Assembly: GCA_013265495.1 (NCBI GenBank)
Contig: MU058045.1
Span: 443,241-507,240, forward strand
DNA: 64,000 bases
Direction: 5' to 3'
DNA from: Vicugna vicugna
Lineage: Eukaryota
Program-made: the position numbers and the translations under genes
Notes under the pieces: generated by a model
The model's database searches: none
What the model saw: only the letters and a program-made list of their open reading frames with translations
Told to the model about the DNA's origin: nothing
In this document: piece by piece, positions 1 through 63,100 of the stretch
How the letters are laid out: each line of letters begins with the position of its first letter
Position numbering within the stretch: the first letter of the stretch is position 1

Positions 1-3000
1 TGTGAAATTGAGAAAGATGCAGTTTGCTCCCAATGCTTTCTTGAACTCTTTATGGACATTTTCATTGGAGCAGCTGCAGAGAAAGAGAACAGTGCTCAGA
101 GGGCAGCTGAAGATTCAGAGGAGAGAGACAGACTGAGAAAAATAAGAAAAGTGGAAGGACTACAGTAAAAGAACAGGGATGAGGAAACAGAGGAACTGAG
201 AGCAAAAAGGACTCTAGAGGGCTAAGGGAACAGCACAGTACACTGAACCTGGGAGCGGGGCCTGGGAGAAACAGGTAGAAATGAGGTCGGGAGGACAACT
301 CCCGACATCCCAAACACTCACGCCTCTCTCAGATCCTCAGGTACAGCCATGGTAACCTTGAAGAAGCTGCCTTTGGTTGCAAGGGGATTGGGGTTAACTG
401 GCCGAAGCCGTTCCAGGGTGACAATCTCATTGTAAGTGGCATCACAGGCAGCATATTCAATGACATAGAACTGGCAGAAGGAAAAAAAGGAGAAGCTGTG
501 GATGACTTGAGCTTCTATCTCCCGCCTTTCTATGACTAAAATGTGTTTCAGTTCTCCAAAGGCCTTCACAATCACTCACATCTCCCTTCATCATCCGCAC
601 CCGGGCCAGCCACCAGCCACAAGGTTCTTGTTCATTGGCTCGAGAATAAACCTGAGAAGTTGAAAATAAAAGAGATATTGAGGACCATCCAAAAACATCA
701 AGAATGGAATAAGCACTAAGACATCTGGGAAGTGTCCTAAGCCAAGATTTAAAAAATTGGGGAAGAGCTGTTAAATAAAATCAGAGGGCACTGGATTTTA
801 GATACTATCATCACAAATGGAAGAAAAGTGAATCCCTGAAACTGGGAAGCTCCCTGAGAGTCTGGATGATCACAACAGTGATGGACAGAGAACTGCTGCA
901 TTTCACTCTTCCACAGGCTGCCTGGATGAAGGGAGTAACTTAGCTTGGGAAGGAAGGACAGTGAACCAACCAGTGAGGAGCCTAGGATGCTGGTATCACG
1001 GTAAGGGAGATGCAGACTCCTGGGAAATGTGACATTTATAAAGGGTGGACTCCATGCCCTTACCTCCACCTCATCCCCTTCTGTGATCTCCTTATTATAG
1101 TCAGCTGGAGGTGGGAGCCGGACATCCCCAAAAGGAATCTGTCTCTCACTCTGCCAGCTGCAAGGGAAACAGTGATATGAAAGCTATTCAGGTTAATGTG
1201 GTTGCCCATTTCTTCAGGAAGAGGTTACTTTCTCTACTGGGCATTTTCTCCCTTCCCTGGTGATTAGAAACTAAATCCCAGGCCCTGCTCCATAGTGGTG
1301 TCATCTGTCTCTTGCTTGCATCTAAATACTGGATCAAATGTCCCCCACCTGCACCATATTTCAGCCCTTTCCTCTCCTGGGATCCCACCCAAACCCCTGT
1401 CTCTCCCCCACCTATTACATGCCTCATGAGACTCAGCCGCCCCCTCTTCTCCACTCTCCTTCTAGGACCTAGTATGCTGGATTCTCTATTCCCAAGGTCT
1501 TACTTGTTTTCAAAGAAGATGGTGACGGAGTCTTCATGGACATCCTTCACAAAGCCCTAGAATGGATTTTAGAACAAAGTAAAAAAAAGAAAGTGACAAT
1601 TTACCACCACCGCAGCCATCAAGGGAACAGAGACTTCTGGAGGGCCTTAAATACTCTTGAGTTTTAGATGGGGACACAAGCAATCTCAAAACAGCCAGAC
1701 AAAGCTGTACTGGGGAAAGAAAACCAATGTTGAGGTAGCAAGAAAGGAAATATTTATTGGCTTGGAAAGGAATGTGGCAAAATCCTGAAATGAGATAGAA
1801 ATTAAGTTGAAGGGAGAAACATCACCTGCATCAGAATAGCCTGGAAACTAGTGGTCTCCTATGGCTCCCACAGGGACCTCCCTATCTGTCTGCCTCCTGC
1901 TGTGCTGAGCAGCTTGCCAGAGTTCAATTAAAATACCAACAACATTCAGCAAAGCTAAGAATATCCCATGAGACAGTGTGAGACTGTCCTGGAGCACCTA
2001 GAGGACATCAGGATCTGCCAAGACAGAAAAGGGTCTGACTTCTTAATACAGCAAGAGCCCTGAGCAAACATGGTGCCTGGGTGCCTGGTCCTAAGAAAAT
2101 AATCAGAACACTGGAGAAGTTCAAAACTTTGAACACAATTCACAGAAGGAAAAATTGGGATTTAAAAGATGTGAGATTTCTAAATGTTAGACTAGGATAC
2201 TGCTAAGATTTTGGAAAGGAAAATAAAATTTGTGGAAGACCCCAATCTTGAGATCTTGACAAAGAGGAACAGAGAAGATTAAATAGCTGGTCTACCTATT
2301 TCCTATATCCTCACTGAGAAAAGCCAAAGCTATGTGTTCAATCCTTTGCTCCCAATTTTTCTATCTTCTCTCGCTATTTTTGACATATTCAAAATCAGGG
2401 GTTGCTGAGTTTGATAAAGTCCAATTTATCAATTTGTCTGTTTGTAACTGAGCTTTTGGTTTCCTTTCTAAATCCAAAGCCACAAAGGTTTCCCCCATGT
2501 CTTCTAGCAATCTTATAGTTTTAATTTTACATTTAGGTCTATGATCCATTTTGCGTTGAATTTTGTATATGGTGCAAGATACGATCAAAATTAATTTTTA
2601 CCTATGGATATCCAGTTCTTTCAGCACCATTTGTTGAAAGACTATCCTTTCTTTACTGAACTGCCTTCCACTTCTGTCAAAAATCAGAAAATACAAATTA
2701 ATGTATAACAGAAAGCAGGTTGGTGGTTGGCAGTTGGCAGAAGACTTTTGGGAGGGATAGAAATGTTCATTATCTTGATTATGGTTTGTTTTATATATAT
2801 GTCAAAACTTAACAAATTGCACACTTTAAATATGTGTACTTCACTATATGTCAATTATGCCTCATTAAAGCTTTAAAAAATTTAGTGGTTTCAAAAAGCT
2901 AACATACAGGAAATATTCCTGAGCTTTGCAAGTAGGAACAAAATATGAGCTTAGGAGAGAAAACACCAAAAACGTATACTTGTGTCACTCCCACCTCAGA

Positions 3001-6000
3001 GAACTAGTCAATCATAAACACTACATTGCTGTTTCCTTATGGTGGGAAAATCTAAAAAATCTCACTCTTGATACAGATCTTGCTATGGAGTCTTACTACT
3101 TAGAGCCTTACTACTCCCCAAGGCATTAACACTCCTGCCTGGCCCCTTCATGCTTTAGCTTTCTCAGCCATTCCCTTCCTCGGAAATGTTTTTCCCACTC
3201 TTCATTCAGCTCCATCAATATCCATTCCTACTATTCTCCATTCAAGTCTTCTGAGGCATCTACTCCCCACTATTTGCCTAAGTCCCTCCTCCCTTTTGGG
3301 TTCTTCCCTTAGTTCCTTCCTCCCCTCCTTTTTTTTCTTTAGCTCTTTTCTCAGTGTCCTCTTCCCCTCCTCCCACAACCACTATCATCTCTCTTGCCTC
3401 TTCTTTTCACCCTTTATAAGGGTCTGTCTGAATTTCTATAAACATTTCAACCAGCCTCTTCAGCTGACTTTATCCAATTCACTTATCCAAAATGTCTATC
3501 TCTAAGCTTTAGAAACAGTTTATCAACAGAGAGTTAGCTATTTTCAAAACATTTCAGGGATGAAATAAAACACAGTGGAAGACACAGAAGGAGAAAAGAA
3601 TCACTTGCCTGCCTCTTTGGTGAACAGATTCCCACTCCTAGATATATAAACACATTCACAAAGGATATGCCTAAAGCTCCAATCCAATCCTCCTCCAACG
3701 TGTCAAGGTTGGACCTCAGGGAGAGGCAGCAATACTACCCTGGTTTTTCTAGTTACCATGATCACAAAGCAGAAATTCAAAGCTCAGAATGGAGTTTTCC
3801 CTCACATTATTCAGCAGTTCAATGAAGCGTAACTCATACTTCTAGGGTCCTTTTCCTTCAGATTCTCCAAAACAAGCTTTCTCCTCAACTTCATATTCCA
3901 ATTCAGTCTCCGCTCCTTAATTCCACCCACACCACCCCAGTTTTTTTCCTCCAAAGATACCAGTGATAGAAAGTGAGCTCCCAGTTCTGCTCAGTCCATG
4001 ATCATTGGGAAGTTAAGCAGATGAAGGCAAGAGCAATTGAGTAAATCTCTAGAAAGCTACCTACATCCAAAGGATAACTCGATTCAGTGGCCATGGTATA
4101 TAGGATTTTGGCTTATAGGGCCTAGGACTGGAGAGAGGAAGAGACAGCCTTAGTTTCCTAAGTACTTCAGTTTCCTCAAATTACAAGACATAAAATTAGT
4201 TCCCACCTTCAACCTATCTTCTAGTCCTGGACTCTCAAAATAAAGGAAGGAGTTCTAGGAGAAAAGCAGGAAAGGGTCTGGATAAAAACCACATGTTGAA
4301 GCTGAGGATGCCATATTCTTTAACAAAAGAACAGGAATTAGGATATCCAGGTAAGGTGTGGAGAGCTGGATACTGTGCCCTGGAAGTTGAACAGATACTT
4401 CATTTATGAGAGTACAATTTAAAGAATAAAACACATTAAGTTCTGACAGAAAAGAAAGAATTGATGGGATAGCTACAAGATAACTTAGATCCCAGATCTG
4501 ACATTTGCAGTTCTACCCTGGAAGATCAACAACAGGACCCAATTCTGAGAGGGATGAAAGGAACCTTCCCAAATTTATAGTTCTAGAAGCAATGTAAACA
4601 CTCCTTGACCCACACTGAAGTTTGCTGAGTCATGAATATTAAATCAGTAGCAAGGTCAGATTGGGTAATTATCTATATGGCACTGAAAGCTGAAGAAAGA
4701 TTAGTCTGAATTTAAGGACTGATCGTTATTTTCAACTGAGGCATGGGGCAGAAAATGCTAAAGTGACCAGAACACAAAATCCACATTACCTGGCTTTCAG
4801 CTCAACTCCAAACTTTACTCTCTGATTTAAAGCATCCTATCCCCAATTCACTCAATCAAGCCTATCACTGCCACAGCCCACAGGAGAAAAGGGAAAGATT
4901 CAGAGTCTTTGTTAGACACTCATATGTGGAAAGGGAAATTTCCCTTCCCAGCTGGCGTACACCGTTAATTTGAACTGGATACCAATCTTTCCCAGCTGTG
5001 CTTGGCTTCCCTGCTTCCTGGAACAAAAGCAAACATCGTATCTTGATCTCAGACTCAATTTAAGAATCACTTTTCTTGGGGGTGGGAAGGACCTAGATGA
5101 AGGACAAGATACTGTGGGAAATTAGGCTAAACTCTTATGAGGAAAGGTATTTCAACAAAGGTAATGCAAGTCTAGGGAAAAGGGATTTAAGAGACAAATG
5201 TACTCTATCAGAACCAGAAAGGAATTAAAAGAGACTCTGCCAAAGAAAACAGAAATGCTATGGAGGCAGCTAGAAGAAAAAAGTCTCATGAGTTAGGAAA
5301 GTATGCACAAAAAATGACAGACGGGATCAGCTGGGAGCTTCCTTCTCCCATCTCAGCTGGGTAATAGAATAAGGTCATTTCCGGGGATTACACAGGAATA
5401 CAGAAATATTAGGACAAAAAGGCAAAGACTTAAATTGAGAGAATAAGATCGATGTGGGTACCCACAGGCACTGAATATAAAGAAATCTGGTGAGGGAAGT
5501 AAGGCAGAAATGAATAGGCATTTAGAGTGGGTAAAAAATCACTATACTGAATTTATCATTTGAAGCTGGGGCAGAAACCTTGTACTCCAAGGACAAATAT
5601 GAGACCCTTTCTAGTTACAGTTATAGCAAGATATGCTTCACAGGGAAGGAGATGGAGAAAGTCATTTCCAAGGGCACTAAGGCAAAGAGGTCTACTATGG
5701 GAGGCTTGAGGGGAAGAGGAGGAAAGGGGCCTCTTCTCACAAGTGATGTTATGAGAAAATATCTCTGCTCTTGCTCCTTAGAGTAAAACAAGAGAATGAG
5801 ACAGAAATTAGGAAAGTCTCTGAGACAATTTCAGGCATAAAGTCCAAAGAGTTCAAAGTAACAACAGTCACATAAAGAAAAATTCCTGAGACAAGAGGAG
5901 TCTCCCTCTGGCTTAATCTAAATTTAGTGTCCTAAAAAATAGCTTCAGAACAGATAAAGAAGGCAATGAAAGTAGTTCTAAAAAACCAAATCCTGGGCAA

Positions 6001-7037
6001 GGAGGGAGCTGAAGTAAACAAGGATCTTTTAAAGATAGTCCCCTTCTCCTTAAAAAAAAAAAAGAAAAAAAAAGCCTATCGGATTCCCAAATTGGGCAGC
6101 CTGGTCAAAAGTCTTCTAGAAGTGGATATCTTTAAGATAAACATAGGGAATCCTAATGAGATCCCCTTTTAGAGATCACAAGATGAAGCTTACATTCCTC
6201 AAGATGAAGAAAGTATATGAATGATCTACATGTATCTGAGGTCAAAGTGAGATGATAAATACAAAACCATCCCTGGGTAGAATGGTAGACTAGCTAGTCT
6301 TGGGATAAAGGGGTGGGGTAAGAGACTTGTGAAAAGATGCCACCTTATGGCTAGGAGGTAACTTGACTGGTACAGCCCAGAGTTCCTGAGGTCAAAAACA
6401 CGAAATGTCATAAACAGACTTCGACCGTTTCTCCTTGGGTTGGAAACAGAAATACAAGATGAAAGTGGGGTGAGTCTTTCCGAGCCAGTAGGCAGAGGCC
6501 TCTCGGAGAAAGATGAAAGGACCTAATATGGGACGGCTTTCCCAAGGGGTTAACAGGGGAGAATAAAGAGAATTCTCCATGTGCGTGGACTGTGGGGAAG
6601 ATGTGATTAAGATCTAAGGTAAGTCTTCCACTAGGAAACAGGAAAAGTCAATGACACGCTGGGTAAATGGGGTCTCTTCTGGGGTGTTGGGGTGGGGGGC
6701 GCCGATCCAAGCACAATAATGCCCTGATATTCATGCTCTCTGAGATGCGGGTAAAAGCAGGTATAATTAAAGGGGCCAAAAATAAGAGGAAAGGGTTGAC
6801 TTCCAGAGGTCTCCTCAGGAGGGCCGCGGGTGGGAGCGTGAGTCTAAGGTTCTAAGGGTCAGGACTTAGCTCCAGAATCTCGATCCCGCCCCACTCTCTG
6901 CTCTGGCTGGAGAGAAGGGGCTGAAGACCGTGTCCCCGGCCAGCGCGCCGCCTCACCTTGTAGAAGGCCCCGTTGGAGCCGCGCACCTCGACGGGCAGTC
7001 CCGGCTCCACATCCCCCCCCGAGGCCAGGCCGCCCAT
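1..7037 (-). CDS. FXR2: FMR1 autosomal homolog 2, coding exons 1-6 (gene continues beyond the window start)
   Basis: Exons 6957-7037, 1504-1556, 1064-1157, 580-651, 322-470 and <1-73, all with GT-AG boundaries. They splice to [54 protein letters not shown]...[33 protein letters not shown]..., the tandem Agenet/Tudor N-terminus of the FXR family. Internal exon sizes of 53/94/72/149 nt match the family. Confidence 0.97.
2360..2880. mobile_element. Old LINE-1 (L1M) fragments in FXR2 intron 1
   Basis: Typical antisense L1 ORF2 text (GATCCATTTTGCGTTGAATTTTGTATATGG...CAGCACCATTTGTTGAAAGACTATCC) followed by L1 3'UTR-like sequence. Boundaries are approximate. Confidence 0.7.
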
Positions 7038-7900
7038 GGCGCCGCCACCGCCTCCGACTCCCCCGGCGGCGGCTGCAGCAGTGCTCTGAGTGCGGGCCGG
7101 GCCAGGTCCCCGGCGTCTCCCCGGAGGAGGAGCCGGAGGGGGAGCCGCGGGGGGCGGGAGCCGGGCCGGCCCCACGGCGGCCCTGCCACAGCCAACGAGC
7201 AGGGGGCCGGGGCCGGGCCGCTCCCCGTCCGCCGCCGCCGCCTTGGTCTCCGCCACCGTGAGGGAAACGGCCGTCGCCGCCGCTGCCTTCGTCACCTCAG
7301 CTTCCGCCCGCCGCCGCCCCCGCTGCTGCCTCAGTCCCGGGACCCGCTGCTGCCGCTGCCGCTCCACGGCCTCCACCTCCCCCTGCCGCCACCGCCTACT
7401 GCGCAGGCGCACCGAGCACCCGCCCGCCGCGCGCGGGCCCCAAGGGCCACTGCGCAGGCGTCGAAGCTGGCGACCCAGCTCGCGCTCGCCAGCGCATCAG
7501 GGCTTCTACACTCCTCTTCACTCTCTCACGCCCTCTCCTGGTCGCTTTTTTGCGCTTGCGCAGAATGAGACCGGCGCTCTTTCTTCGCCACCCCACCACT
7601 CCACCGTCCCCATCTCTTCCTTTCCCCGCCCCACAACACTGAGAGCTAACCAATCATGGGGAGGGAGGGGCCAAGCTCACTCAGTCGGATTGGGTTTCTG
7701 CTGCTCCTGGTCAGACCACACCCACTTCACCCTGAGAGCTCCACCAGGCTTGGGCAAGTTAGGGATGGGCATGCGCCTGAATGATTGCTTGGTCACTTTC
7801 CCCACCTTTGTCTTCCTTGATGCGCACGCTCCAAAGAAAAAAAAAGAGGAGTCAAAAGGAAAAAGGAGGGGCTGGTGCGCATGCGCTGAGCTTTAATGTC
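6900..7900 (-). promoter_or_regulatory. FXR2 CpG-island promoter and GC-rich 5'UTR with clustered NRF1-type motifs and CCAAT boxes
   Basis: CpG-dense. TGCGCAGGCGCA 7400-7411, TGCGCAGGCG 7451-7460, TGCGCTTGCGCA 7551-7562, TGCGCATGCGC 7876-7886. CCAAT 7650-7654 and ATTGG 7689-7693. Confidence 0.8.
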
Positions 7901-9617: not shown

Positions 9618-11470
9618 CAAAGAAAGAAAGAGACAAAGAAAGAAAGAAACAAAGAAAGAAAGAAACAAAGGAAGAAACAAAGAAACAAAGAAAGAAACAA
9701 AGAGGGAAGGAAAGAAAAAGTTGGAGCAGAAATACAGATTACACAATGGAAAAAAACATTTTAAAAAATCACAAATATTCTCAGTTAAGAAAAGAATATA
9801 TATCCATGAAATAAAACCAGAACTTTTTAAAATGCAGAGAATAAAAGAGAACTCTTAGAAATTAAAAACCTGAAAGCAGAAATAAAAATTCAATAGGAGG
9901 TATATAATATACAACATGATAGATATAATTAACACTGCTGTATGTTATATATGAAAATTGTTGCATTCTTATCACAAGAAAAATTTTTTCTGTATTTCTT
10001 TAATTTTGTACTATATGAAATGATGGATGGTAACTAAAATTATTGTGATAATCATTTTGCAATGTATGTAAATCAAATCATTATGCTGCATATCTTAAAC
10101 TTATACAGTACTGAAATTATATCTTTTTAAAACTGAAAGAAAAATAGATAAAATTCATTAGTGGATAAAAAAATTCAATAGAAGGGTTGGAAAATAACAT
10201 TAAAGAAATCTCCTGGAAAATAGAGGGGGGAAAAAAAGGAAAGAAAATAATTTTGAAAGTAAAAGACTAGTCCATGAAATTTAACATCTGAATAACAAAA
10301 GTTCCAGAAAGAGATCATAGAGATAATGGAGGGGAGGAAATTATCCAAAAAATAATAATAAATTTTTTAAATGTTTCCATAACTGAAGACATGAGTTTCC
10401 AGATTGCAAAAACCCACTAAGACCACACATTTCTGTGTAAGATCTCAGGATGCTAGGATAAAGAAAAGATCTTAAAACTGTGGTTGGGGAAAGAGAGAAG
10501 GAAAATAAAAATAGGCTTCATACAAAGGATTCAGAATAAGATTTCAGACTTCTTATCAGCAATACCAGAAGCTAGAAGGCAATGGAGAAATGCCTTAAAA
10601 ATTCTCAGGGTAAATTATTTCCAAACTAATATTTGCTACCCATCCACACTGTCAATTATGTACAACAGTAAAATAGACATTTTCAGATTTTTAAGATCCC
10701 AACAAATTTACCTCCCAGGCATCCTTTCTGAAGAAGCTTCATCAAAATAAACGAAGAAAGATGAGTACATAGGTTCTGGGAAACAGGCTATGAACCCAAG
10801 ACAGAGGAAAAGGGAGTCCCAAGGATGGATGTGAAGGGAGATACCAACAGTGTTGCCTAAAGATCAGACTCTGTGCTGAAGCAGGTCTAAAGGCTCTATG
10901 AGAAAGTTCTTCAACATGAAATAAATAAAATTCCTTAGGTGTTTATGTATTCTGAGAAAAGACTGACACAACTAAGGGAGAATTGGGGGATAAATAAGAG
11001 TATACAGAAAACTAAGGAAAATAAAGAAGACAAGGCAAGTGTTGATTCCAAGGAAAACAAAAATGGTGCAAGAGAAGAAAAAACCAACCATCCACGTGGC
11101 TCAACTGTAAAGAGCATTTGTATAATCATAACGAAACACAGATTCAACCAGAGTTATGATATAATATTGGAAGGATGGGAGGATGAGAAGTGCAGGTGGG
11201 GTGATGGGGAAGTTGGAAAAGAGAGTTAGCAGTGGAAGATCCATAGTCATGCCTGCAGAAACATCAAAAAGTAGCAATATTTGTATGCTATTTTGAGTTC
11301 GAGATATGAAAGTAAATTGAAAAAAAAAACAATTTAAAAACTCAATTGAAAGTGATTGACTTTGAAGAGTGAAGGGAATTGGGAGACTACTTCTTTCAAT
11401 ATATACACCTTATAGAAATATTTGATTCTTTAAATAATATATTGTATATCTTTGATAAAAATAAATAAAT
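9100..11470 (+). mobile_element. Degraded L1 ORF1-like (L1M/HAL1-type) element with a nested L1 3' end at about 9897-10168
   Basis: ORF 10484-10750 (ISDFLSAIPEARRQWRNALKILRVNYFQTNICYPSTLS) resembles the L1 ORF1p C-terminal domain. The nested L1 3'UTR is flanked by the direct repeat AAAAATTCAATAG (9884-9896 and 10169-10181). Confidence 0.7.
9568..9720 (+). repeat. (GAAA)n microsatellite with GAAACAAA variants
   Basis: Directly visible tandem repeat. Confidence 0.95.
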
Positions 11471-12918: not shown

Positions 12919-14225
<1,307 letters not shown>

Positions 14226-15464: not shown

Positions 15465-15540
15465 AACCATGTGTGAGGCTGCCTGCCCCCATGCTTTCTC
15501 CCCAGAGCTGTCTGAGGCACAGAGAGGACCAAGGCTGATA

Positions 15541-18352
15541 ATGGAGAGCAGAGGACCACTGGCCACATGGTCCTAGCCACGCAGGAAGGGCCCTGAGACA
15601 CACTGTCCCCAGCCAGGTCCAGGGGCAGGACAGGGTGCTCAGCCCCATCTGTGTTTAAATGAGCTACTCTTTGGCTCTACCCTGTTCCTTTCTTTCCTCC
15701 CCTGGCCTTGTAGCAGTGCCTCTCCCTCCCTCCCTCTGTCTCCGGCATGTCCTTATTTCAGCTTGTTTGTTTTCTATCTCTGACAGAGGACTCAGGACCC
15801 TCCTGCTCTACACCTCAGCAATGGCCCAGGACAAGAGCCTGTCACCATCATGACCTTCAGCCTCACCAAGATCACAAAGTATGGGGTTGACCTAATTCCT
15901 TGACCTAGTCCCCTGACCTCACCCTCTCTTCATCATCTCCTTTCTTTTCCATTTCTCCATGCCCTTCTCTCTCCCTGAAGTCCACCTCCCTCAACCTCAC
16001 ATCTACCATCAAAGGGCACACCCCATACCCAGTCCTTCTGTGTCCTTCCAGAACCTCCTCTTCCTATGAGTTTCGCACCTGGGATCCAGAGGGAGTGATT
16101 TTTTATGGTGACACCAACCCAAAGGATGACTGGTTTGTGCTGGGACTTCGGGATGGCAGGCCTGAGGTCCAGCTTCACAATCACTGGGCCCAGCTTACAG
16201 TGGTCACTGGACCCCGGCTGGATGATGGGAGGTGGCACCAGGTAAGCCAGATCTAGTCCTGAGAGAGGGGTGTCTTGAGCTGGTCTACGGAAGGGAACAG
16301 AACCAAGTTACTGGGTATCCCTTTACCATTGTCATCTCATTGAATCCACATAAAAGCCCCATGAAGCTGCTATTCTTGTCTCCATTTTTTTCAAAGAGGA
16401 ATTCTGAGGCTTAGTATATAAGTGACAAGTCCCAAGTGAGCTAGTGATGTTAGCTGACTCTTCAAGTACGTGTTCTTTCTGCCATACAAAGCTGCCTCTG
16501 AAGAAAGTGGTGAAGGCAGGCCTCAGGGGTCCTGGTTCTGCTTCTCTTTTCCTTCCTGCAGTTAGAAGTGAAGATCCATGGGGACTCTGCTGCTGGGGTG
16601 GATGGGGAGGAGGTGCTGCCTGTGTCTGAGACAGGTCTCTGGGCCTCTGGCCAACAAACCCCAGCCCATCATGAGGATCGCGGTGGGGAGGCTGCTGTTC
16701 CCTGCCTCCAACCTCTGGTTACCGGTAACTGCATCACAGGGGTAACCAAAGCTGGTAAAGCTTTGCTGGCTGGGTGGCCATGGGGGTCTAAGTCCACACT
16801 TCATGGAGAGGGGATGGGGTGAGAGCTGCGTAGGGGGAGGCCAAATACTTGTGTCTTGGAGGGGAATAAGCTGAGGGTGGAGAGGCTGGGACTAGGGCTC
16901 AGATGTCCTGATTCCAGCATCCCCACATCTTCCCTTTCCCCCATGGGCTCCAATTGGTCCCTGCCCTGGATGACTGCCTGCACCAGCATGACTGGCTGGA
17001 CCAACAGGCCCAGAGCTCAGCATCTGTCCCCACTGGCCTCAGAAGCTGCTCCGTAGAGTCTCAGCCTGGGATATTCTTCCCTCCAGGGACTGGTGCAGAA
17101 CGCAGTCTTCAAGGTAAAGGCTATCTTTCTCTCCATGACCAGCTTGTATCCATTTCCCTCCACCACTAGCCTCTTCCGTCCACAAATACCCAACCTTGAG
17201 ACCTCAGGAAGATCATTTCTCCCCCCCCGACCCCCCCAGACATTCCCCAGCCTCATGTAGAGCCCTGGGCCTTCTCCCTGGACCTGGGACTCCAGCTAGC
17301 AGCAGGCTCAGGCCCTCTCCTTGCCCTTGGGACCCCAGAAGACCCTCCTCGGCTCAGCCTTCACCTCCAAGATCAAGTAAGAGAGGGATGCTTCCTGTAT
17401 TTGCTGGAGCCTGGAAGCAGTGGGAGAAAAGGGGACTCTAAGAAGTCAATACTAGGAAAGGTTAAGGGTAGGGGTTGGGGGATGGGGGGCCTGCAGAGAC
17501 ACATGTTGAAGCTGCCTACACCAAGCAAATGGCTTTTACTTAAGATTGTATATTTACCTGGGACTTGGGGTGGGTGTGGTTTTATAGAAGGCCAAGCCAG
17601 GAGAATGGAGGCAGGATCGAGGTGGTGAGAATGGCCAGTAATTAGACTGTGTGGCTAAGAGGCAGAATTGAGGCAGCCAGAGTGGGACCACAAGGTTCAC
17701 TCTTTCCTCCCCAACTTGTGTCCCTTCCAATATACTCTGCATAAGGTGGTACTGTCTTCTGGGTCGGGGCCAGAACTGGACCTGCCCCTGGTCTTGGGAC
17801 TCCCTCTTCAGCTGAATCTGACTGTGTCCAGGGTGGTTCTGAGCCAGGGGCCAAAGAAGGAGATGCTTACTCTGCCTCCTGTGGGTCCTGGCTCCCTCTT
17901 CAACCTCTGGGCCCAGCTGCAGGGGCGTCTCTTCCTGGGGGCTTTGCCAGGTAAGAAAGTGATGTTCACGTTTCTCAGCACACCACTGGAAACAGCTAAG
18001 GGGAGGGGAGAAGATGGGAAGGGGTGCATTTTTAGGGGAAGAAAACCTCCGGGAGGGAAGAGGAAAAGGCTACAAGAAGAGAGAGGGTAAGCGGGTAGTG
18101 GGAGGAAGTGCTTTCAAAAATTTAGGTTGGAGAACTGGAAAAGCAGGGAGGAGCTTCTGGATCCAAGCCACCCTAATGTCCCCTCAATGCTACCTCCCTC
18201 TAGGAGAGGCCTCTTCTGCCTCCTTTTGCTTGGATGGCCTTTGGGCACAAGGCCAGAGGCTGGACATGGACCGGGCCTTGAGCAGAAACCAGGACATCTG
18301 GACTCACAGCTGTCCTCAGAGCCCAAGCAATGGCACTGACACCACCTATTAA
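15541..18352 (+). pseudogene. SHBG: Sex hormone-binding globulin, disabled (unitary pseudogene)
   Basis: Eight exons are recognisable: 15541-15616, 15787-15878, 16052-16241, 16562-16724, 16954-17113, 17240-17376, 17743-17950, 18204-18352 (e.g. [34 protein letters not shown]). Lesions: TAG at codon 12 (15574-15576) with the poly-Leu signal core missing; exon 4 of 163 nt (frameshift); acceptors CAA (16951-16953) and CAT (17740-17742) instead of CAG. Confidence 0.9.
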
Positions 18353-18848: not shown

Positions 18849-20493
18849 GAGTGGGTCATAGAAAGATGAGGGCAGGGGTTCTGGGAAAAGGGGTGGAGGC
18901 AGCAGAGAGAAAATAAAAGGGAGGAGAGCAGAGGGAGAAAGCTGCCTGTCTCTCCTAGCCTTGGTGTACTTGCTGCGTTCCCAGAGGAATTTGTCTTTAC
19001 TCCATTAAACAAGAATTGGCTTGTGCTAGTCCCAGCTGGAAAGGACAGATTCAGGAATATCTCTGCCCTCAAAGAATATATGGTGACCCAGCCCTCAGCC
19101 CCCAGACCTCTGCAGAATCCTGGTGCCCCAGCTCCTCCCTGGGGCACCCTTTTGCCCCAGCCCCCAGCTCCCTGGGAAACTTCATGCCCAATCCCCCAGC
19201 CCCTAGCTCCCAGCTCTCAGCCCTCTTGCAAATCCTTACATCCTAGCCCGAAGCTCCCAGCCCCCTAGGGAACTCCAGCCGTCAGTCCCCACCTCTCAGT
19301 CCTCATCCCTCTTAGGAACTGTTAACCTAGCCCCCATCTCCAGACCCCATGGGGATCCTAGTGTGCCAGCTTCCCAGGTGATGAGGATCTTCCTACCAGT
19401 AATCCAGGCAACAGGGTGAGTCACTCACTGGACCTTCTGCCCCCTTTTTGCAGGGATCAGCCAGGACCTAAATGGCTCCAGGGTAAGGAGACTTCCAGAG
19501 AGTCTCAGGGTTGGAAGACACAAATCCTAGGCCCCTCCTTGGACCCTCTTGATCTCAAGTTTGCAAGGTCTATAGCTGCCTCCATCCAGTCAGAGTGTTT
19601 TGCAGGAAAGTCTTCAGCATGGCAAGGGAGCCCCAATTCACCTCTGGTCCCTGGGCAATGTTCAAGGTCAGCCTGGGCCACTTGGACATGTCCATTCAAC
19701 TGACATTTCCTGAGCACCTACTGTATACCAGGCACTGTTCTAGACACAGAGAATGCATTGATGAAAAGGATAGACAGAATCCCTGCCCCTATGAAGCAAG
19801 CTCACAATATAAGGAAGGCAACAGCCAGACAGCTCATAAACAAAAATAAATAAGCAAGGCCATTTCCGATAGTGGGCATCTCCAGAAAGGGAACAGAATC
19901 CTGTAGTAGAAGCAAGGGTGGTAGAGAAGGAGTGACATTACCCAAGTGGTCAGGGAAGGCCTCCCTGAGGCAGTGTCACTTGAGCAGAGACCTGAATAAT
20001 GAAAAGAAACCAGTCCTACGGGGCCTCGGGTATTGGCTAGTGGGGAGAGAGGTTAAAGGGCCTCAGCACACCTGGGATCGCACCAAGGGGGTTGTTCTGA
20101 GTTGTAACTTCCTGGCCTTGAGGAATTTCCCAGGGGCTAGCTTTTCTCTCCTTCCTCCACTCCATCCTGTCCAGGACACCGTGCCCCCAACCTCTCTTTC
20201 TCCAGCCTGCCCTAGATTCCAGGATTCCTGATTACCATCCAGAGCTGTCTACACTCTTTCATTAAGGCCCACCCCCCTACCCCGCTTTGACACAGACTCT
20301 GCCAGGACCCACCAAGGGCACCTACGATGCCTGCCCAGTGTCCTGTACCTCCCCCACACCCCTGAAACCTTTCCAGAGCTTGGCACCATATGCTGCAGCA
20401 TTCAGGCCTGGTCTGCCCACTCACTCTACCCAATGTATTATCACTCTCTTCCCTTCCCCACCTTCCCTTCCTCTCCACCCTCCTCTACCCCTT

Positions 20494-20505
20494 TCTCTCT
20501 TTTTT

Positions 20506-20569
<64 letters not shown>

Positions 20570-20570
20570 T
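20494..20570 (+). repeat. (TTTC)n microsatellite (expanded SINE tail)
   Basis: Directly visible, and abuts the minus-strand SINE. Confidence 0.95.
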
Positions 20571-20688
20571 TGTGGGGGAGGTAATTAGGTTTGTTTGTTT
20601 GTTTATTTTTGGTGGAGGTACAGGGGATTGAACCCAGGATGTCATGCATGCTAAGCAGGCACTCTACCACTGAGTCATACCCTCCCCT
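20571..20688 (-). mobile_element. tRNA-derived SINE (Vic-1-like)
   Basis: GGGGAGGTAATTAGGTTT...GGGGATTGAACCCAGG...CACTCTACCACTGAG. Confidence 0.8.
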
Positions 20689-23854: not shown

Positions 23855-24478
23855 GACTGCGCGTCGCGACTGCCGGCCCCGCACTGCTGAGGAGCGAAGC
23901 CTTGCTCTGGGGACCTCCTCATCCCCGCCTGTCCCCCAACTGCGCGTCCCCGCCTCACCCCCGCGTCCAAACTACCGCTGGTGTGGCGGTCTCCGCTCGG
24001 CGGAAGAGCCTTGAGCGGTCACCCAACCCATCTCCACAGCCTCTTTGCATCTCGGATTTCGGGGCGGCCCCTTCCCCCACTTCTCCCTGCCTCACTGCAC
24101 CCCAATTTTTTCTGCGCTTCGCCCGGGTTTTGCAGCCGTCTATTTTTGCATCCCTTTTCGTTTTACTTCTGGGAGGCTTGGGGGTGAAGCTGCGATCGCA
24201 CCCCTTTCCCTTTTTATCTTCCCTTGCTCCGACAACCTCCCTTTTCATCGCAGTCGGGGGGCCTAGAATCTGTGCATCCTACGCTGTAACGCCAGCACCC
24301 CGTGGCGCGTGGTCCTGCACCCCGGAATTTGCAGCAGCTGCATATCTGAGGGGGGTCTCCCTCGCCCCCCTTGCCTTTGATCCCCGCGCGTTAGAGTACG
24401 TGGGGAGGCTTCATCGCGCAGCACCCCGGCTTCTCCGCAGCCCCCCGCCCCGCGCGGGACTCGCCCCCTGCCGTCAAG

Positions 24479-27400
24479 ATGGTCATCCAGAAAGAGAAGA
24501 AGAGCTGCGGGCAGGTGGTTGAGGAGTGGAAGGAGTTCGTGTGGAACCCGAGGACGCATCAGTTCATGGGCCGCACCGGGACCAGCTGGGGTACGCAGGG
24601 CCGGCCGCGCGAGGGGAGGGGGTCCGCCAGGCGACGCCCCGGGGGCACCAGGTCTCGTCGGTCCAGCCCCAGCTCCTTTCCCGGGTCCCCAGCGTCCAGC
24701 CCCCCTGCCGGGCTCTGGGCTGGGAGGGGGCCGAATCGCAGGTCTAATCTCCCTGGCTGGCCGCTGCGGAGGCGGAGAAAGTAGGTCACTGCCGCCTTCC
24801 TGCCCCCCGCGGAGCCCCCTCGCGCGGGGGGTCGCGGGCTCTGCGCGCCTGTCCGCGCCGCGGCGCTCGCGCTCCCTGTCGGGGCCGGTCAGCGCCACAC
24901 GGTCGTCCCCCCTTCCCCAGAATAGCGCCCCTTCCCTCCCTCTGGCTCTCCCTAGCTAGCCAAGCCCGTCTATTTTTAGCTCGTGCCCACCCCTTGGACC
25001 CTGGGAACATTCATGAGAGGGCGGGTCTTGGAGAGGTAGGGTGTGTATAGGAGGGGGTTCTTCACAGCGGAAGTTGTCTGTATCCTACTGCCGAGTATTT
25101 TGGAGCCTTTTGTGGCTGCTTTGTGGGTGGGAGGGTTGCTGGCCAGGGTTGCCACTGTGAGGTTTTCGAGGTTAGATGTTTGGCTCTGATGTCGCAGGCA
25201 GAGGGAGTGGTCACTAGTGCTGAGATGCGTACATCATCTGGCCCAGTGTGTCTGTGGGCTTGGGGTGGCCTGGCACCTTCCCCACCTTCCCCACCCATAC
25301 CTTGGTGGGACTCACAAGGTGTGAAGGGAGTTGTGTCTGGTTGAGGGTTTGGTGCTGGACATAGGTGCCAGTGACAGGTGGAATTCTTCCAAAAGGGATT
25401 TTCAAGCTGGGAAGTCGAAGCACATGGACATTGTGTGACACACTTTACAGTTCATCCACACTAATTGAAGCTATCCCCATTAGCCCACCCACCTAGGGGC
25501 CTTTGAGGTGGGTCTGATGCAGTCCTTGCCGCAGGAAACTTGCAGTTCAGCCCCTGGGACTGGAGGGGTCCATGAGTTCTTGGGAGAATCTGAGGCAGCT
25601 TCATGGGGTATGCGTCTTCTGAGATGGAAGAACTGAGGGTCTGGGGTAGTGGAAACAGCAGGTACTCACACTAGGCTGAGGAGTGATGGACGGAGTGATG
25701 AGTCAGATCCACCAAGGACCAGCTCTTTGCCTGGAAGGCTGTGTGAGATCTACCTTTACTCCCAGCTCTGCCCTGGGTGCTGTGTATGAGTTGGGAGTAG
25801 GTGACAGTTGAAGGTTCTGGTCAGCTGTCTCTGAGAGACTCTGCAACTTGACAGGAGCCTCATTCAAGGTTTGGCTTTTGTGGGGCTCCAAGAGAGAGAA
25901 GATTTTGCTGTTTGAGGGTGAGGGTCCACACTCTCAGGGATGGGATGAGAGTTTGGTTGTGAAGCAGGCCACTGCCAGCTTAAAAAGTCATTGTGCTGGA
26001 CAGCTTCAAGCATGAGTACCGATACAGTGGAAACAGATGTGCCTTTTCAGGGTCATGAAACTTGAGAAGTTAGAAATGTAATTTGAGGCAAAATGATTGT
26101 GGCCTGTTCTAGAGGTTGTCCCAGCAATGAGAGTTTAGGGCTCTTGTGGCTTCCACAAGGTTGGGCCTCACTGTGCTGTAGGACTAGTTGGGGCTGGGGA
26201 GTCATGGCTGGAAGCCAGACACAACTGTCTTTTTCCAGCTGGTCCCCTTTTGCTCCCAGGGGAAGGCTCCAAGATGTTCCCGAGGCTCTTCGACCTATTC
26301 CTGTGTAGAACTCTGAACGGGAGTGGGGTGTATGGGAATAGGTGAGGTCATCAAGGAAGACCTGGTGCCTGCTGACCCTGTTTCCTCCTCCGTAGCCTTT
26401 ATCCTCCTCTTTTACCTCGTCTTCTATGGCTTCCTCACCGCCATGTTCACCCTCACCATGTGGGTGATGCTGCAGACTGTCTCTGACCATACCCCCAAGT
26501 ACCAGGACCGACTGGCCACGCCGGGTGAGTGATGCAGCTCCCCCCACCAGCCACTCTATCTTGTGCCCCCATGCCTCCAAGAGGAACTCACAGGACGAGA
26601 ACTCACAGTTCTTCTCAGAGGTTTGGTTCTGATGATCCAGTCGCCGTGTGCAGGGAAGTTCTTCTTGAAGTCTGTCTTCCCATTTCCCACAGCAGAGAGC
26701 TATGTGATCTGGGGAGGTGGCAGATGTTCACAGGAGATCTTCCTCCAGTGGAGATGATCTCAGATCTTCACCCTATCCCTCACCCTGGTTTGTTCATCGT
26801 CTTCCCTCTGTGTGGTCCCTCGTCTTATATATGCTTCTCACTCTTGCCTTTATTGGCTAGGCCTGATGATTCGCCCTAAGACTGAGAACCTTGATGTCAT
26901 TGTCAACGTGAGTGATACTGAAAGCTGGGACCAGCATGTTCAGAAGCTCAACAAGTTCTTGGAGCGTGAGTGTGGTACTGATGATATGGCTGTGCAGGAC
27001 CTCCGGAAGGGAACTGGGGACCCTGGGAGCGGAACATTAGGCCCATGACTCTCTCTCCCCCACCTCCTTAGCTTACAACGACTCCATCCAAGCCCAAAAG
27101 AATGACGTCTGCCGCCCTGGGCGCTATTATGAACAGCCAGATAACGGAGTCCTCAACTACCCAAAACGTGCCTGCCAGTTCAACCGGACCCAGCTGGGCG
27201 ACTGCTCGGGCATTGGGGACCCCACCCACTATGGTTATAGCACTGGACAGCCCTGTGTCTTCATCAAGATGAACCGGGTACCCAGGACCTTAGTTCCCAG
27301 GGAGAACAGAGGAGGGAGCTGGGGCCACCATCTGCTGGCAGTTGCTTCCTTTCACTGGGGTTCATGGGCTTTGGGAGATTTTTAGATGTTTGAGTGGCTG

Positions 27401-28701
27401 AGAGAACAAGAGAGATGGGACCATTGATGGCTGAGAGCATGGATCCTTATGTCTTTGACAACTTCTTTCTCTAATCCTCACCACTCTTTCTCCTAACTCC
27501 AGGTCATCAACTTCTATGCAGGAGCGAACCAGAGCATGAATGTTACCTGCGTGGGGAAGGTGAGTTTGTTGGGCCTTGTCCACCTGCCCTCCTGTTTGTC
27601 CTTCAAGGTTTCCCTGTCATTCACTCATCTCTCCCTATCTCCCTTGCTCCCAGAGGCCCCATCACCATAGGGACAAGGGGGTAAGAGTGGACTCCAGTAT
27701 GGCTCCAACCCCAAGGGGCTCCCACCCCTCTTGTTTCTCTCTAGGATACAGAAGCTTGCTCTTTGGTGTTGATAGATACCCCCTTCCTGACTCTACCTAC
27801 CACCTTCTTGCCCTAACCCTTCCATCTTCTCTATTCCCTGACCATGCTTTCCCCTCTCCCTCCCATATCTCTCCTGCCCCTCCATTCTTTTTAAGTATCT
27901 AGTAGCTGCTGATCTGTAAATGCCACCTGCCACCACTAAGTTGTCCTTAGAACCCTGGACCCCCCACCTCTGTCCTCTCTAGGAACGTTCCGCTCCTCTT
28001 CAGTCAACCCCCTCCTTCCTTCCTACTGAGTCCTTACTCATTTATCTGTTCTCTCTTGGCTCTGCTCCAGAAACCGATTCCTGAGGATGGGGTAAGAATT
28101 TGGGGTGGGAGGGCAGTAGGAGGCTCCAGGCTCATTAGCGCCCTTCAGGACTTCCCAGTCCGATGAGAGACAGGACACCCCTTCTGCGCACACGCAAACC
28201 CACCCGGCCTCAGCTCAAGGGAAACGGATTTGAGACAGACTAATTTGGGGTGAAGGAAGAACAGAGGAAAGTCTGGAGAGCTTCTGGGTTCCTGCCATCC
28301 CTAACATGCTCTCCCCCACCCTCTTGCGCCCCCACAGCGAGATGAAGATGCCGAGAATCTCGGCAGCTTCGTCATGTTCCCGGCGAACGGCAACATCGAC
28401 CTCATGTACTTCCCCTACTACGGCAAAAAGTTCCACGTAAGTCCCGTGGAAGGCGGGGGGCCCCAGGGGAGCGGGGTCCTGGGCAGGAGGCCTCGTTGCC
28501 GCGGGTCTGCACCCTCTCTCTCCTCCTCTGGCCCAGGTGAACTACACGCAGCCACTCGTGGCCGTGAAGTTCCTGAATGTGACCCCTAACGTGGAGGTGA
28601 ACGTGGAATGCCGCATCAATGCCGCCAACATCGCCACTGACGACGAGCGCGACAAGTTCGCAGGGCGCGTGGCCTTCAAACTCCGCATCAACAAAACCTG
28701 A
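24479..28701 (+). CDS. ATP1B2: Na+/K+-ATPase beta-2 subunit (AMOG), 290 aa, intact
   Basis: Exons 24479-24590, 26396-26524, 26861-26965, 27072-27277, 27503-27559, 28338-28436, 28537-28701 (873 nt, all GT-AG). [50 protein letters not shown]...YFPYYGKK...[12 protein letters not shown]. Confidence 0.98.
27654..27680 (+). CDS. ATP1B2: Candidate 27-nt alternative microexon of ATP1B2 (RPHHHRDKG)
   Basis: Pyrimidine tract plus TGCTCCCAG acceptor, GGG|GTAAGA donor, phase 0-0, no stop codon. Confidence 0.6.
28071..28091 (+). CDS. ATP1B2: Candidate 21-nt alternative microexon of ATP1B2 (KPIPEDG)
   Basis: Pyrimidine tract plus TGCTCCAG acceptor, GGG|GTAAGA donor, phase 0-0, no stop codon. Confidence 0.6.
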
Positions 28702-35357: not shown

Positions 35358-38724
<3,367 letters not shown>

Positions 38725-47552: not shown

Positions 47553-57856
<10,304 letters not shown>

Positions 57857-60120: not shown

Positions 60121-63100
60121 GAGCGGCTGGGGTTGGGGAGACCCCACACCCTCTGGGCAGGGACTATGGAAGCTTTGGGGACTTTGGGGGCTGGGTTCTC
60201 CGAGCTGGGAGGAGGCTGGAGGGAGGGTGCTGGTGCTCTGATGTGAGCTGATGGGTAACCAGACAGAGGTGATCCTGGGAGCCAGACTCACGGGTGGCAC
60301 CCAGAGCTGAATGTGGGTGGTGATAGCCATGTGTCAAGAGTTTGAAAGACCCCCAAGGGGCAAGGATCTGAAAAGTTCATGGGTAGCCAGGAGGGCAGTG
60401 GAGTGGTTATTTGGGTTTGTGGGAGACTTGTGCGGTGTGGGGGGCTGGGCTTAGAGGGAGCCTGGTTAATGTCAGCTCTCAGGAGAGCAGCTGAGTAGGT
60501 GCTGCTGAGGCGCTGAGAGGAAGGGCAGGGTGCCTCCCTTCCCAGAAGGGACTCAGTGGTGGAGATGGGAGGGAAGGGGGCTCAGTTTGGGGGCTCTGGG
60601 GACAACTCCTCCAAGGCTTTCTGACTCTTCTTCACAGTCTGTCTCCCAACTCTTGCCCACAGCCAGAGGGTCCGTGATCCCTTGGCGGAACAATTTCCCG
60701 ACCAGATTTTCCTGCCTTCCTGGCTTGGGGACTTATTTCTAGAAGAAGCCTGGAACCCCCTATAGCCCCCTCTTTCCCTGTTGCATCTGGAATCCTGAGG
60801 ACTCCTTCGCTCCCTCCCGCATCTTTGCCGCAAACTCTTCCACCAAACCCTCTGTTTCATGGCATGCTTGCTTTGCTCTGAAAAAAGGCCAGGGGTCAGA
60901 TGAAACTTCAAGCCACAGAGAGTAGGACAGAACCCTTGGGAGGTCATCTGGGTCCCTTGCCTCCCTGCAGACCCCACTCCCTATTAGCAAAAAGTTCTAT
61001 GTTTTGAAAACTTCCTCCTTCCCTGGGGAGGCTGTGTGAGCCATGGGGAGAGGGCCAGCTTTGCAACTCATCAAAGTCTAGGTCTTAATCCTAGCCCTGC
61101 TGCTTTCTGCTGTGTGGCCTTGGGCAAGTCACTTAACCTTTCTGAGTTTGTATCCTCAATCCTTACAGCTTTTATGAAGATTAGAGGTGAGGTGTCTGAA
61201 TTTACTATACGCTCGTTAAAGGAGAACTAGGAATATTCTTCTTTCTCTCTTTACTTCACAACTTCCCTCCTATTTCCCTTCCCTGGCCTCCCACCCATAT
61301 CTCTTTGGATCTAATCTCAAATGTCTTTTCCCCTCTCAGTCTCCTGCCCACCAACTCCCAGAAGCAGTTGGAGTATCAGGTGCAGTGTGAGGATGTAAGT
61401 TAGGCTGATTCCGATAGAGTTGAGAAAAGGGAGTTAGGGTGTTCTGGGAGCTCTTTGGGGTGTTGTGTGGGATGGAGTGGGTTATTTGGGAGTCTGGGAA
61501 GGTAGCAAGCAGCAATCCCCTGTGACCAAGTTCTGAGACCCTGTCGACCATTAATGCACAGGGAGGGGCTGTAGTTGCTGGCACGTAGTGGCTGTACTGG
61601 CCCAGGGGCTGCCTGGGCTATGGGAGATGTGGGCTTGTGTTGGCTATGGGTAGAAAAGTCAACTCCTTCCATTCCAAAGCAATAGGACACTTTTCCTAGG
61701 AAGTGTGACACCAGGGGCTGGGGGAAGAAGGGGTACTGAGCAGGGAAATATCTGGGGCAGCTTTCCCACAGATCCTGGTTCCCATTAGCCCCATTTAGGG
61801 CCATTGTCAGACCAGACATTTGCCTCCTGTCACATTGCCTGGCTAACTTGGGACACTGGTCTGGATTACCCTCCATATCCCCTCCCCCATCCTGCCCTCT
61901 TTGCCCTGAAATCCCTGAAATTCAGTGGTGGCCTGGGGGAGGGGAGGCTCTGCCCCATGGTTGACTGCTGTGGAATAGTGAAATCACCTGGGAGGGGTGG
62001 GCTCTGTGGTTCCAGAGAGGCCAGCTCCTTGGTAACTGGCATCCTGTTGCCATGGCAACAGGGCTGGTGATGGAGCGAGAGATGGCAGTGTGCATGTGGT
62101 GAGGGCGGGCTGAAGAGTGCATTTGGGCACACCAAGGGGCAGGAGACCTCTGAGCCTGGCTTCCTGCTGCTTCCGACGTGAGCTTCCAGAGTCTTTAGTC
62201 CCTGTTCTGTCAGAATAGACACTCTGCTCAGACAAAGGCTGTCCTGCCAGGAAGTGGGGTGAGGGAGGCAAAGCTCTGGGATCCAGACCTCTGACACCTC
62301 TTCTCCTTGTCCACCTCGCCCTCCTCCCCATAGGTTCCAGGCAGAGGGTGGTTACGTGCTCTACCCTCAGATTGGGGACCGGCTAGACCTGCTCTGCCCC
62401 CGGGCCCGGCCTCCTGGCCCCCACTCCTCTCCTAATTATGAGTTCTACAAGCTGTATCTGGTAGGGGGTGCCCAGGGCCGGCGCTGTGAGGCACCCCCTG
62501 CCCCCAACCTCCTTCTCACTTGTGATCGGCCAGATCTGGATCTCCGCTTCACCATCAAGTTCCAGGAGTATAGCCCTAACCTCTGGGGCCACGAGTTCCG
62601 CTCACACCATGATTACTACATAATTGGTACTACTGGGCACAGGGCAGGGTCAAGTGGGGAGGTGCTCCTGGGATCAAGGGCAGATGAGGGAGGGGACTAC
62701 TGGAACCAAGAGAGACCCCTTATACCCTGGGGTAGTTTGGGGCCAGGGCATGGAGACAGAATAGGGACTGGACTCTGGAGCGCCAACTTCTCACTCTGGT
62801 TCTTCTCTCCCAGCCACATCGGATGGGACCCGAGAAGGCCTGGAGAGCTTGCAGGGAGGTGTGTGCCTCACCAGAGGCATGAAGGTGCTTCTCCGAGTGG
62901 GACAAAGTGAGTATGGCTGGGATACCTCCTAAGAGCCGAGGTGGGTTGGGGCAGTACCATTATGGTCAGGAGACTGCTGTCTCAGCCCCTCTCTCCTGGG
63001 TCTTCCCCATCTCCAGGTCCCCGAGGAGGGGCTGCCCCCCGAAAGCCTGTGTCTGAAATGCCCATGGAAAGAGACCGAGGGGCAGCCCACAGCCTGGAGC

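Follow-up and report, generated by a model that had tools for sequence, protein, structure and literature searches.

The SHBG gene of the vicuna (Vicugna vicugna) raises the question of whether the South American camelids still secrete sex hormone-binding globulin, the plasma protein that sets the free fraction of testosterone and estradiol. The gene lies at positions 15541-18352 on the + strand of a 64,000-nucleotide (nt) stretch of the vicuna assembly GCA_013265495.1 (contig MU058045.1, positions 443,241 to 507,240; hereafter the window), in which eight exons align in order to mammalian SHBG (tblastn, camel protein against the window). On balance we favor a recent, lineage-specific loss of the secreted form on the South American camelid branch, anchored by a deletion in exon 1. 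In this assembly a 32-nt deletion takes away the hydrophobic signal-peptide core and places a TAG at codon 12, which by itself would abolish secretion of SHBG into plasma and the seminiferous tubule. Within exon 4, a 2-nt deletion breaks the frame in the laminin-G domain that binds the steroid, and the acceptor of exon 5 reads AA in place of AG. We propose that these defects arose after the South American branch (Lamini) had separated from Camelus, in a gene in which an older, camelid-wide pair of frameshifts (-1/+4) had recoded eight exon 4 residues without destroying the open reading frame (ORF). Disabling mutations are present in the only copy of the gene in this assembly and the orthologous ORF is full in three Camelus species, as is characteristic of a unitary pseudogene.

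The exon 1 deletion is the center of this argument. Camel residues 1-10 (MESRGPLATW) align to 15541-15570 in frame 1 and residues 22-36 (PSHAGRALRHTVPSQ) to 15572-15616 in the next frame; no counterpart exists in the window for the signal-peptide core, residues 11-21 (HGLLLLLPLMP), and 32 nt have thus been deleted, the junction lying near 15570/15571. The deletion shifts the frame, and the TAG at 15574-15576 thereby becomes codon 12. A preliminary description of this DNA, made from the sequence alone, had reported a 76-nt exon 1 with this stop and without the poly-leucine signal core, and both features are borne out by the alignment, which identifies residues 11-21 as the deleted part. Two ways around the stop were considered and rejected. 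An ATG at 15469..15471 (+) lies in frame, 24 codons before the exon 1 ATG, and the Camelus bactrianus model starts there, giving a 24-residue N-terminal extension in the alignment; in the window, translation from this ATG ends at the same TAG. The post-deletion frame offers no start either, since it contains a TAA at 15539-15541 just upstream and no ATG. A signal peptide followed by a continuous ORF of about 400 codons, the hallmark of a secreted SHBG, is thus missing here, with a stop at codon 12, residues 11-21 gone and exon 4 out of frame. Indirect support for the exon 1 lesion comes from alpaca (Vicugna pacos) gene models of two accession series, one of them superseded, which start downstream of exon 1. 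Of the SHBG defects, we infer that the deletion in exon 1 is the oldest and the best established.

Exon 4 carries three changes. Two changes are common to camelids: one G has been lost from the G run at 16595-16598, and 4 nt have been gained at about 16620-16623, eight codons further on. Their net effect of +3 nt is a 55-codon exon 4 in which the frame is restored and eight residues are recoded. This part of the exon is GDSVLL-GWMGRRCC-L(R/C)LRQVSGPL in all five camelid models that include it, whereas the other mammals in our alignment (A1) read GDS(V/L)(L/M)L-x-VDG(E/V)EVL-(R/H)LRQV(S/F)G(P/Q)L; the VDGEEVL of other mammals has become WMGRRCC plus one extra residue in the three Camelus species and in alpaca. 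The window DNA retains VDGEEVL in the neighboring frame, indicating that the camelid GWMGRRCC is a frameshifted reading of conserved sequence. A third change is found only in the window, where 2 nt are missing at about 16589 (tct g^ctg ctg) relative to the alpaca models and their GDSVLLGW. Combined with the old -1, this 2-nt loss returns VDGEEVL to its ancestral frame, and the old +4 then leaves the remainder of exon 4 out of frame. The shift after DGEEVL in a 163-nt exon had therefore been read correctly at the outset, but its cause had not: it results from the camelid-wide -1/+4 pair plus the 2-nt deletion. The 2-nt deletion is species-specific, polymorphic or an error in one assembly, and its status in the population, like that of the exon 5 acceptor mutation, is uncertain.

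The older pair of frameshifts invites the view that SHBG function had already gone in the camelid ancestor, through disruption of a core beta-strand, and that the ORF of Camelus is a remnant or has been put to another use. The recoded residues are the counterpart of 115-122 in mature human SHBG (chain numbering checked), a segment that presumably includes a dimer-interface leucine and a zinc-site aspartate; the replacement of this segment by GWMGRRCC in all five camelid models, against (V)DG(E/V)EVL in all five other mammals of the alignment, would favor an ancestral loss, as would two Arg-to-Trp changes that the three Camelus models add at sites agreeing in at least 8 of 12 outgroups. In a PDB alignment of the camelid exon 4 reading, human SHBG was matched only from chain positions 121-156 onward, and the first nine query residues were left unaligned. 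Nevertheless, we consider an ancestral loss very unlikely. Three Camelus species retain a 401-codon ORF with a signal peptide, only 14 amino acid substitutions fall on the camelid stem outside the recoded stretch, and deviations at conserved sites are not unusual. Restoration of the frame after eight codons itself suggests selection for the downstream protein. At rough mutation rates, a 1.2-kb ORF would not stay open in Camelus since the camelid ancestor under neutrality, and several disabling hits would be expected since the split. For this reason we regard the -1/+4 pair as recoding that was tolerated or compensated, and not as the start of a family-wide loss.

Further searches with this region added little. 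The 22-residue ancestral-frame reading of exon 4 gave only chance matches in the PDB, the query being too short, and the exon 4 reading retrieved three proteins (64-69% identity) from the Logan ORF collection, no camelid among them. Camelid SHBG alleles were not found in metagenome contigs, where the two loci recovered (50% identity over 24 residues) are irrelevant. An AlphaFold2 model of camel SHBG built from a 38-sequence alignment had a mean predicted local distance difference test score (pLDDT) of 40.7 and is unusable for the recoded strand. As a compensated frameshift inside a conserved ligand-binding fold, the recoding raises the question of whether camel SHBG can still dimerize and bind steroid.

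The splice sites add one further defect and remove another from the list. Donors are GT at all seven introns and a usable acceptor AG is present at six, that of exon 7 having moved by 3 nt; the seventh, that of exon 5, reads AA, in agreement with the CAA noted earlier, and canonical sites are consequently not found at every intron. In-frame cryptic AGs for exon 5 occur at 17006-17007, 54 nt inside the exon, and at 16916-16917, 36 nt upstream. At exon 7 the ancestral acceptor position (17741-17742) reads AT, which had been counted as a lesion (CAT). This does not hold, as the AG immediately downstream opens an in-frame exon 3 nt later: the junction is QDQ|VVLSS in all five camelid models that span it (three Camelus, old and new alpaca) and QDQKV in all five non-camelids of the alignment, so that the change is a 3-nt acceptor shift common to Camelus and alpaca that costs one lysine. 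Of the four independent lesions originally proposed, those in exon 1, in exon 4 and at the exon 5 acceptor stand, and that at exon 7 does not. The camel-like exon lengths given in Table 1 total 1206 nt, enough for 401 codons and a stop, in agreement with the camel protein.

The predicted products of this assembly follow from these lesions. Translation from the exon 1 ATG yields 11 residues. From the first methionine of exon 2 (15850-15852, MTFSL...), the start of the current NCBI alpaca isoforms X1 and X2, the SHBG frame is lost in exon 4 after ...DGEEVL with all three options for the exon 5 acceptor, and the out-of-frame tails end at 133, 145 or 321 residues. With exon 5 beginning at its normal position or at 16918, 485 nt separate the stop from the last exon junction downstream of it, and nonsense-mediated decay would be expected. 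No reading frame of this assembly gives a secreted SHBG.

Gene models from other camelids place these events on the tree. The Camelus dromedarius and C. ferus models have 401 residues and that of C. bactrianus 425, all in the same protein cluster and all with an exon 1 signal peptide (XP_010994818.1, XP_006175875.2 and XP_010964219.2). A 401-codon ORF in three Camelus species means that the loss is not camelid-wide at the level of the ORF, and that any loss would lie on the South American branch. Camelus SHBG resembles the window in the GWMGRRCC recoding by the exon 4 pair, in the exon 7 acceptor shift and in sequence (92-100% identity in the exon pieces aligned without intron read-through), and differs from it in that exon 1 has 108 nt and encodes a signal peptide, exon 4 has 165 nt and stays in frame, and exon 5 is complete. 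The two Arg-to-Trp changes of the three Camelus models lie in exon 3 (GLWDG and GPWLDD); the window has Arg at both sites, as do at least 8 of 12 outgroups, and the first is Arg in nearly all of 36 non-camelid mammals.

The alpaca models are nearer to the window. By tblastn they are identical to it in the aligned stretches of exons 3-8 except for one exon 4 codon, and with exon 2 compared by eye the protein of exons 2-8 is the same but for that codon; the 49 residues of exon 8 are the same in the window, in camel and in the alpaca models. Both current isoforms (XP_072796504.1 and XP_072796505.1) begin with the methionine of exon 2. In X1, exon 4 is spliced to the cryptic AG (17006-17007), with the loss of 18 residues that include the first cysteine of the linker, a disulfide cysteine, and this use of a cryptic site is what would be expected if the normal exon 5 acceptor were dead. 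X2 retains the complete exon 5 and skips exons 6-7. The superseded model XP_015107127.1 has an out-of-frame start inside exon 3 and skips the first part of exon 4, past the site of the 2-nt deletion. At the level of reads, the SHBG locus is nearly identical across four organisms, with at least 0.95 of 304 sampled words shared in 14 of the 24 listed runs (two from organism A, nine from B, two from C and one from D), although the top runs may be the source sample itself and one lesion alters only about 1% of the words. RNA runs share 0.05-0.28 of the sampled words, which is no measure of expression.

Whether the rest of the gene shows decay was assessed by polarizing amino acid changes with 12 outgroup sequences and by counting deviations at 97 conserved alignment columns, those with the same residue in at least 35 of the 36 non-camelid mammals compared. 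The camelid stem carries 19 polarized changes, 5 within the recoded stretch and 14 outside it, and 9 further sites are ambiguous or variable within Camelus. Neither the deviation count nor the polarized substitutions revealed an excess of change in camelids or on the window branch, and relaxed selection is unsupported by them.

Several observations weigh against a loss of SHBG on the South American branch. The window branch has accumulated 4 polarized changes against 3 on the common Camelus branch, giving no signal of relaxed constraint, and deviations at conserved sites number 3 in the window and 4-5 in Camelus, compared with 0-12 in the 36 other mammals. Exons 2, 3 and 5-8 contain no stop or frameshift. 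The four cysteines and the residues that we take, from human structure papers, to form the Ca site and to contact the steroid are all present in a by-eye reading of the alignments. Any of the three lesions may reflect assembly error, heterozygosity or polymorphism, and one of them, the 2-nt deletion in exon 4, is absent from the current NCBI alpaca models (GDSVLLGW). In X2 and in the old alpaca model exon 4 is joined to exon 5 at the usual place; either the acceptor may be intact in those alpaca assemblies, or protein alignment may have imposed the junction. Finally, NCBI annotates alpaca SHBG as protein-coding, with isoforms that lack the N terminus, begin at the methionine in exon 2 and could still give a non-secreted product. 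The open exons and unchanged ligand-contact residues also bear on timing: if SHBG is dead in this lineage, they suggest that its inactivation was recent.

The same observations can be accommodated by a partial loss, in which the exon 1 deletion has removed the secreted form, and a non-secreted isoform starting at the exon 2 methionine, transcribed from an upstream alternative first exon, has been kept. The 2-nt deletion in exon 4 would then be an error of the assembly or an allele that is private or polymorphic, and the isoform would be like the human acrosomal testis product. For human testis SHBG, one report describes exon 1A transcripts, for which translation is proposed to begin with the first in-frame ATG that exon 2 offers (Met30 in mature numbering), and an acrosomal isoform (PMC2706245), and the start methionine is the same as in the alpaca models. 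Those models also keep exon 4 in frame, and the open exons 2, 3 and 5-8 and the lack of excess amino acid change on the window branch would suit a retained function. We nonetheless think a partial loss unlikely. Translation of the window from that methionine leaves the SHBG frame in exon 4. Of the alpaca isoforms, X1 is short of 18 residues, a disulfide cysteine among them, and X2 has no exons 6-7. Moreover, the human exon 1A isoform coexists with the secreted form, whereas in the camelid it would be the only possible product, and from a frame that is broken in the window.

Loss of the secreted form presupposes that the gene has been correctly identified and that no other copy replaces it. In the PDB, exon 3 (16053-16241) matched human SHBG chains with an E value of 1e-38, and 57 of the 63 residues shown in the alignment are identical. 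Its identity is 100% to two Vicugna pacos SHBG models from NCBI (230 and 326 residues) and 97% to the C. dromedarius model (401 residues). In a large protein collection the same exon found 205 proteins at E<=1e-10 among 255 candidates, 120 of which were listed. Together with the alignment of all eight exons, these matches confirm the identification as SHBG, and the near-identity to the alpaca models bears out the earlier guess that the DNA is from a camelid. The assembly searched for further copies comprises 2.03 Gb in 12,405 contigs and may be incomplete, making any copy count a lower bound. Against it the camel SHBG protein gave nine matches, of which seven are the exons of this locus and two, at 35% and 30% identity, are presumably GAS6/PROS1-type paralogs; a 1.4-kb SHBG DNA query gave one match, its own locus. 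Within that bound, the protein and DNA searches found no second intact copy and no alternative haplotig, and the single-copy status assumed in the preliminary description, which had called for a genome-wide search for an intact paralog, is upheld.

A fragmented assembly could also have produced the lesions, or they could be limited to one animal, SHBG being functional in the species. Besides the number of contigs, such an artifact or private variant would fit the absence of the exon 4 2-nt deletion from the alpaca models and the position of the exon 1 deletion across a short CTG run, as judged from the camel protein. We judge it improbable. A (CTG)5-type run should be far below assembler word sizes, and three separate defects are found in 1.2 kb of coding DNA. 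Exon 1 is coding in none of the three alpaca models (two current, one superseded), as expected if the deletion is also present in those assemblies, although these are gene models and not DNA. The neighboring ATP1B2 has all seven exons in order and in frame, without a frame break and at 90-100% identity to primate and bat ATP1B2 coding stretches, which argues against a locally error-ridden or indel-riddled assembly and shows, for this gene, that the flanking genes are as flawless as had been stated. If the lesions did prove private to one animal or assembly, the finding would be ordinary.

The setting of the gene is conventional. The neighbors were mapped from window ORFs with Pfam matches (scans of 148 and 128 ORFs), and the local order is FXR2, SAT2, SHBG, ATP1B2, TP53 (Table 1), which we take to be the order at human 17p13.1; a WD40 exon and an ephrin exon, assigned by position to WRAP53 and EFNB3, complete this arrangement. 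The position between SAT2 and ATP1B2 is therefore normal, as had been proposed, on the strength of neighbors labeled by Pfam and the PDB. The window also contains a LINE-1 (long interspersed nuclear element 1) fragment and two tRNA-Ala(AGC)-like sequences, which may be genes or SINE heads, detected by Rfam and ARAGORN with Rfam scores of 46 and 36 bits. One further ORF has a PRP3 match below threshold (23 bits against a cut-off of 31.4) and may be a processed pseudogene fragment.

Table 1. Exons of the vicuna SHBG locus and other features of the window.
Feature	Position	Strand	Length in window (nt)	Camel-like length (nt)	Observation
SHBG exon 1 remnant	15541..15616	+	76	108	
SHBG exon 2	15787..15878	+	92	92	Intact, AG/GT sites
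SHBG exon 3	16052..16241	+	190	190	Intact, 63 codons
SHBG exon 4	16562..16724	+	163	165	Frame lost
SHBG exon 5 acceptor	16952..16953	+			AA in place of AG
SHBG exon 5	16954..17113	+	160	160	Open frame
SHBG exon 6	17240..17376	+	137	137	Intact, AG/GT sites
SHBG exon 7, camelid form	17746..17950	+	205 (or 208)	205	Acceptor AG 17744-17745
SHBG exon 8	18204..18352	+	149	149	Intact; TAA 18350-18352
FXR2 (Tudor_FRX1 ORFs)	752-7496	-			Pfam
LINE-1 ORF1 dsRBD-like ORF	10457-10747	+			Tnp_22_dsRBD, 23.8 bits; between FXR2 and SAT2
SAT2 exon (GNAT)	13366-13608	-			Pfam; best PDB match human diamine acetyltransferase 2, E 3e-19
ORF with PRP3 match	20424-20663	-			Below threshold
tRNA-Ala(AGC)-like sequence	20610-20684	-			Between SHBG and ATP1B2
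ATP1B2	24395-28698 (or 24479-28698)	+			Pfam
TP53 DNA-binding-domain exons	36193-37835	-			Pfam
tRNA-Ala(AGC)-like sequence	52093-52166	+			Upstream of WRAP53
WD40 exon, WRAP53 by position	56633-56917	+			Pfam
Ephrin exon, EFNB3 by position	62263-62907	+			Pfam

Compared with human SHBG (17p13.1), the window has the same eight-exon layout, the same neighbors FXR2, SAT2, ATP1B2 and TP53 and the same two laminin-G domains, and differs in an exon 1 without a signal core and with a stop at codon 12, an exon 4 out of frame and an exon 5 acceptor that reads AA. The nearest precedent for a loss is in birds, which are without Shbga, a gene conserved in all other vertebrates according to a preprint (bioRxiv 10.1101/2020.07.02.184432). 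On that account the avian case, like that proposed for camelids, is a lineage-wide absence of the plasma sex-steroid carrier. The camelid case would differ from it in that the gene body is present and nearly intact and that the event would be young, confined to at most one mammalian tribe, in which it may be fixed. We found no literature on SHBG in alpaca, llama or camel, with public loss tables (TOGA-type) and older plasma-binding surveys outside the scope of the search; SHBG is absent from the supplements of three mammalian gene-loss catalogs, and among the entries listed in the GISMO supplement it occurs only in the missense-constraint table, in decile 9. A lineage-specific unitary pseudogene is a well-known kind of event, and the SHBG instance appears to be unreported in the literature searched.

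How far the loss extends, and what it would mean, can be stated at different strengths. The preliminary description, which spoke of a unitary pseudogene and of a species that lacks SHBG and the androgen-binding protein (ABP), is plausible but overstated, both terms being what we infer from the lesions. A still broader proposal is that every South American camelid, whether alpaca, llama, guanaco or vicuna, is a natural germline knock-out for secreted SHBG/ABP. This would be the first such loss documented in a placental lineage, superimposed on a camelid-wide recoding, by a compensated frameshift, of a core strand of the steroid-binding domain that selection has retained; we put it forward tentatively, as somewhat less likely than not. 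Should the loss of the secreted form be confirmed, a large, farmed, induced-ovulating mammal without secreted SHBG would be a natural model for the free-hormone hypothesis, and the finding would bear on the interpretation of hormone assays in camelid reproduction. These camelids would then manage free androgen and estrogen without their carrier, or with one that is much altered.

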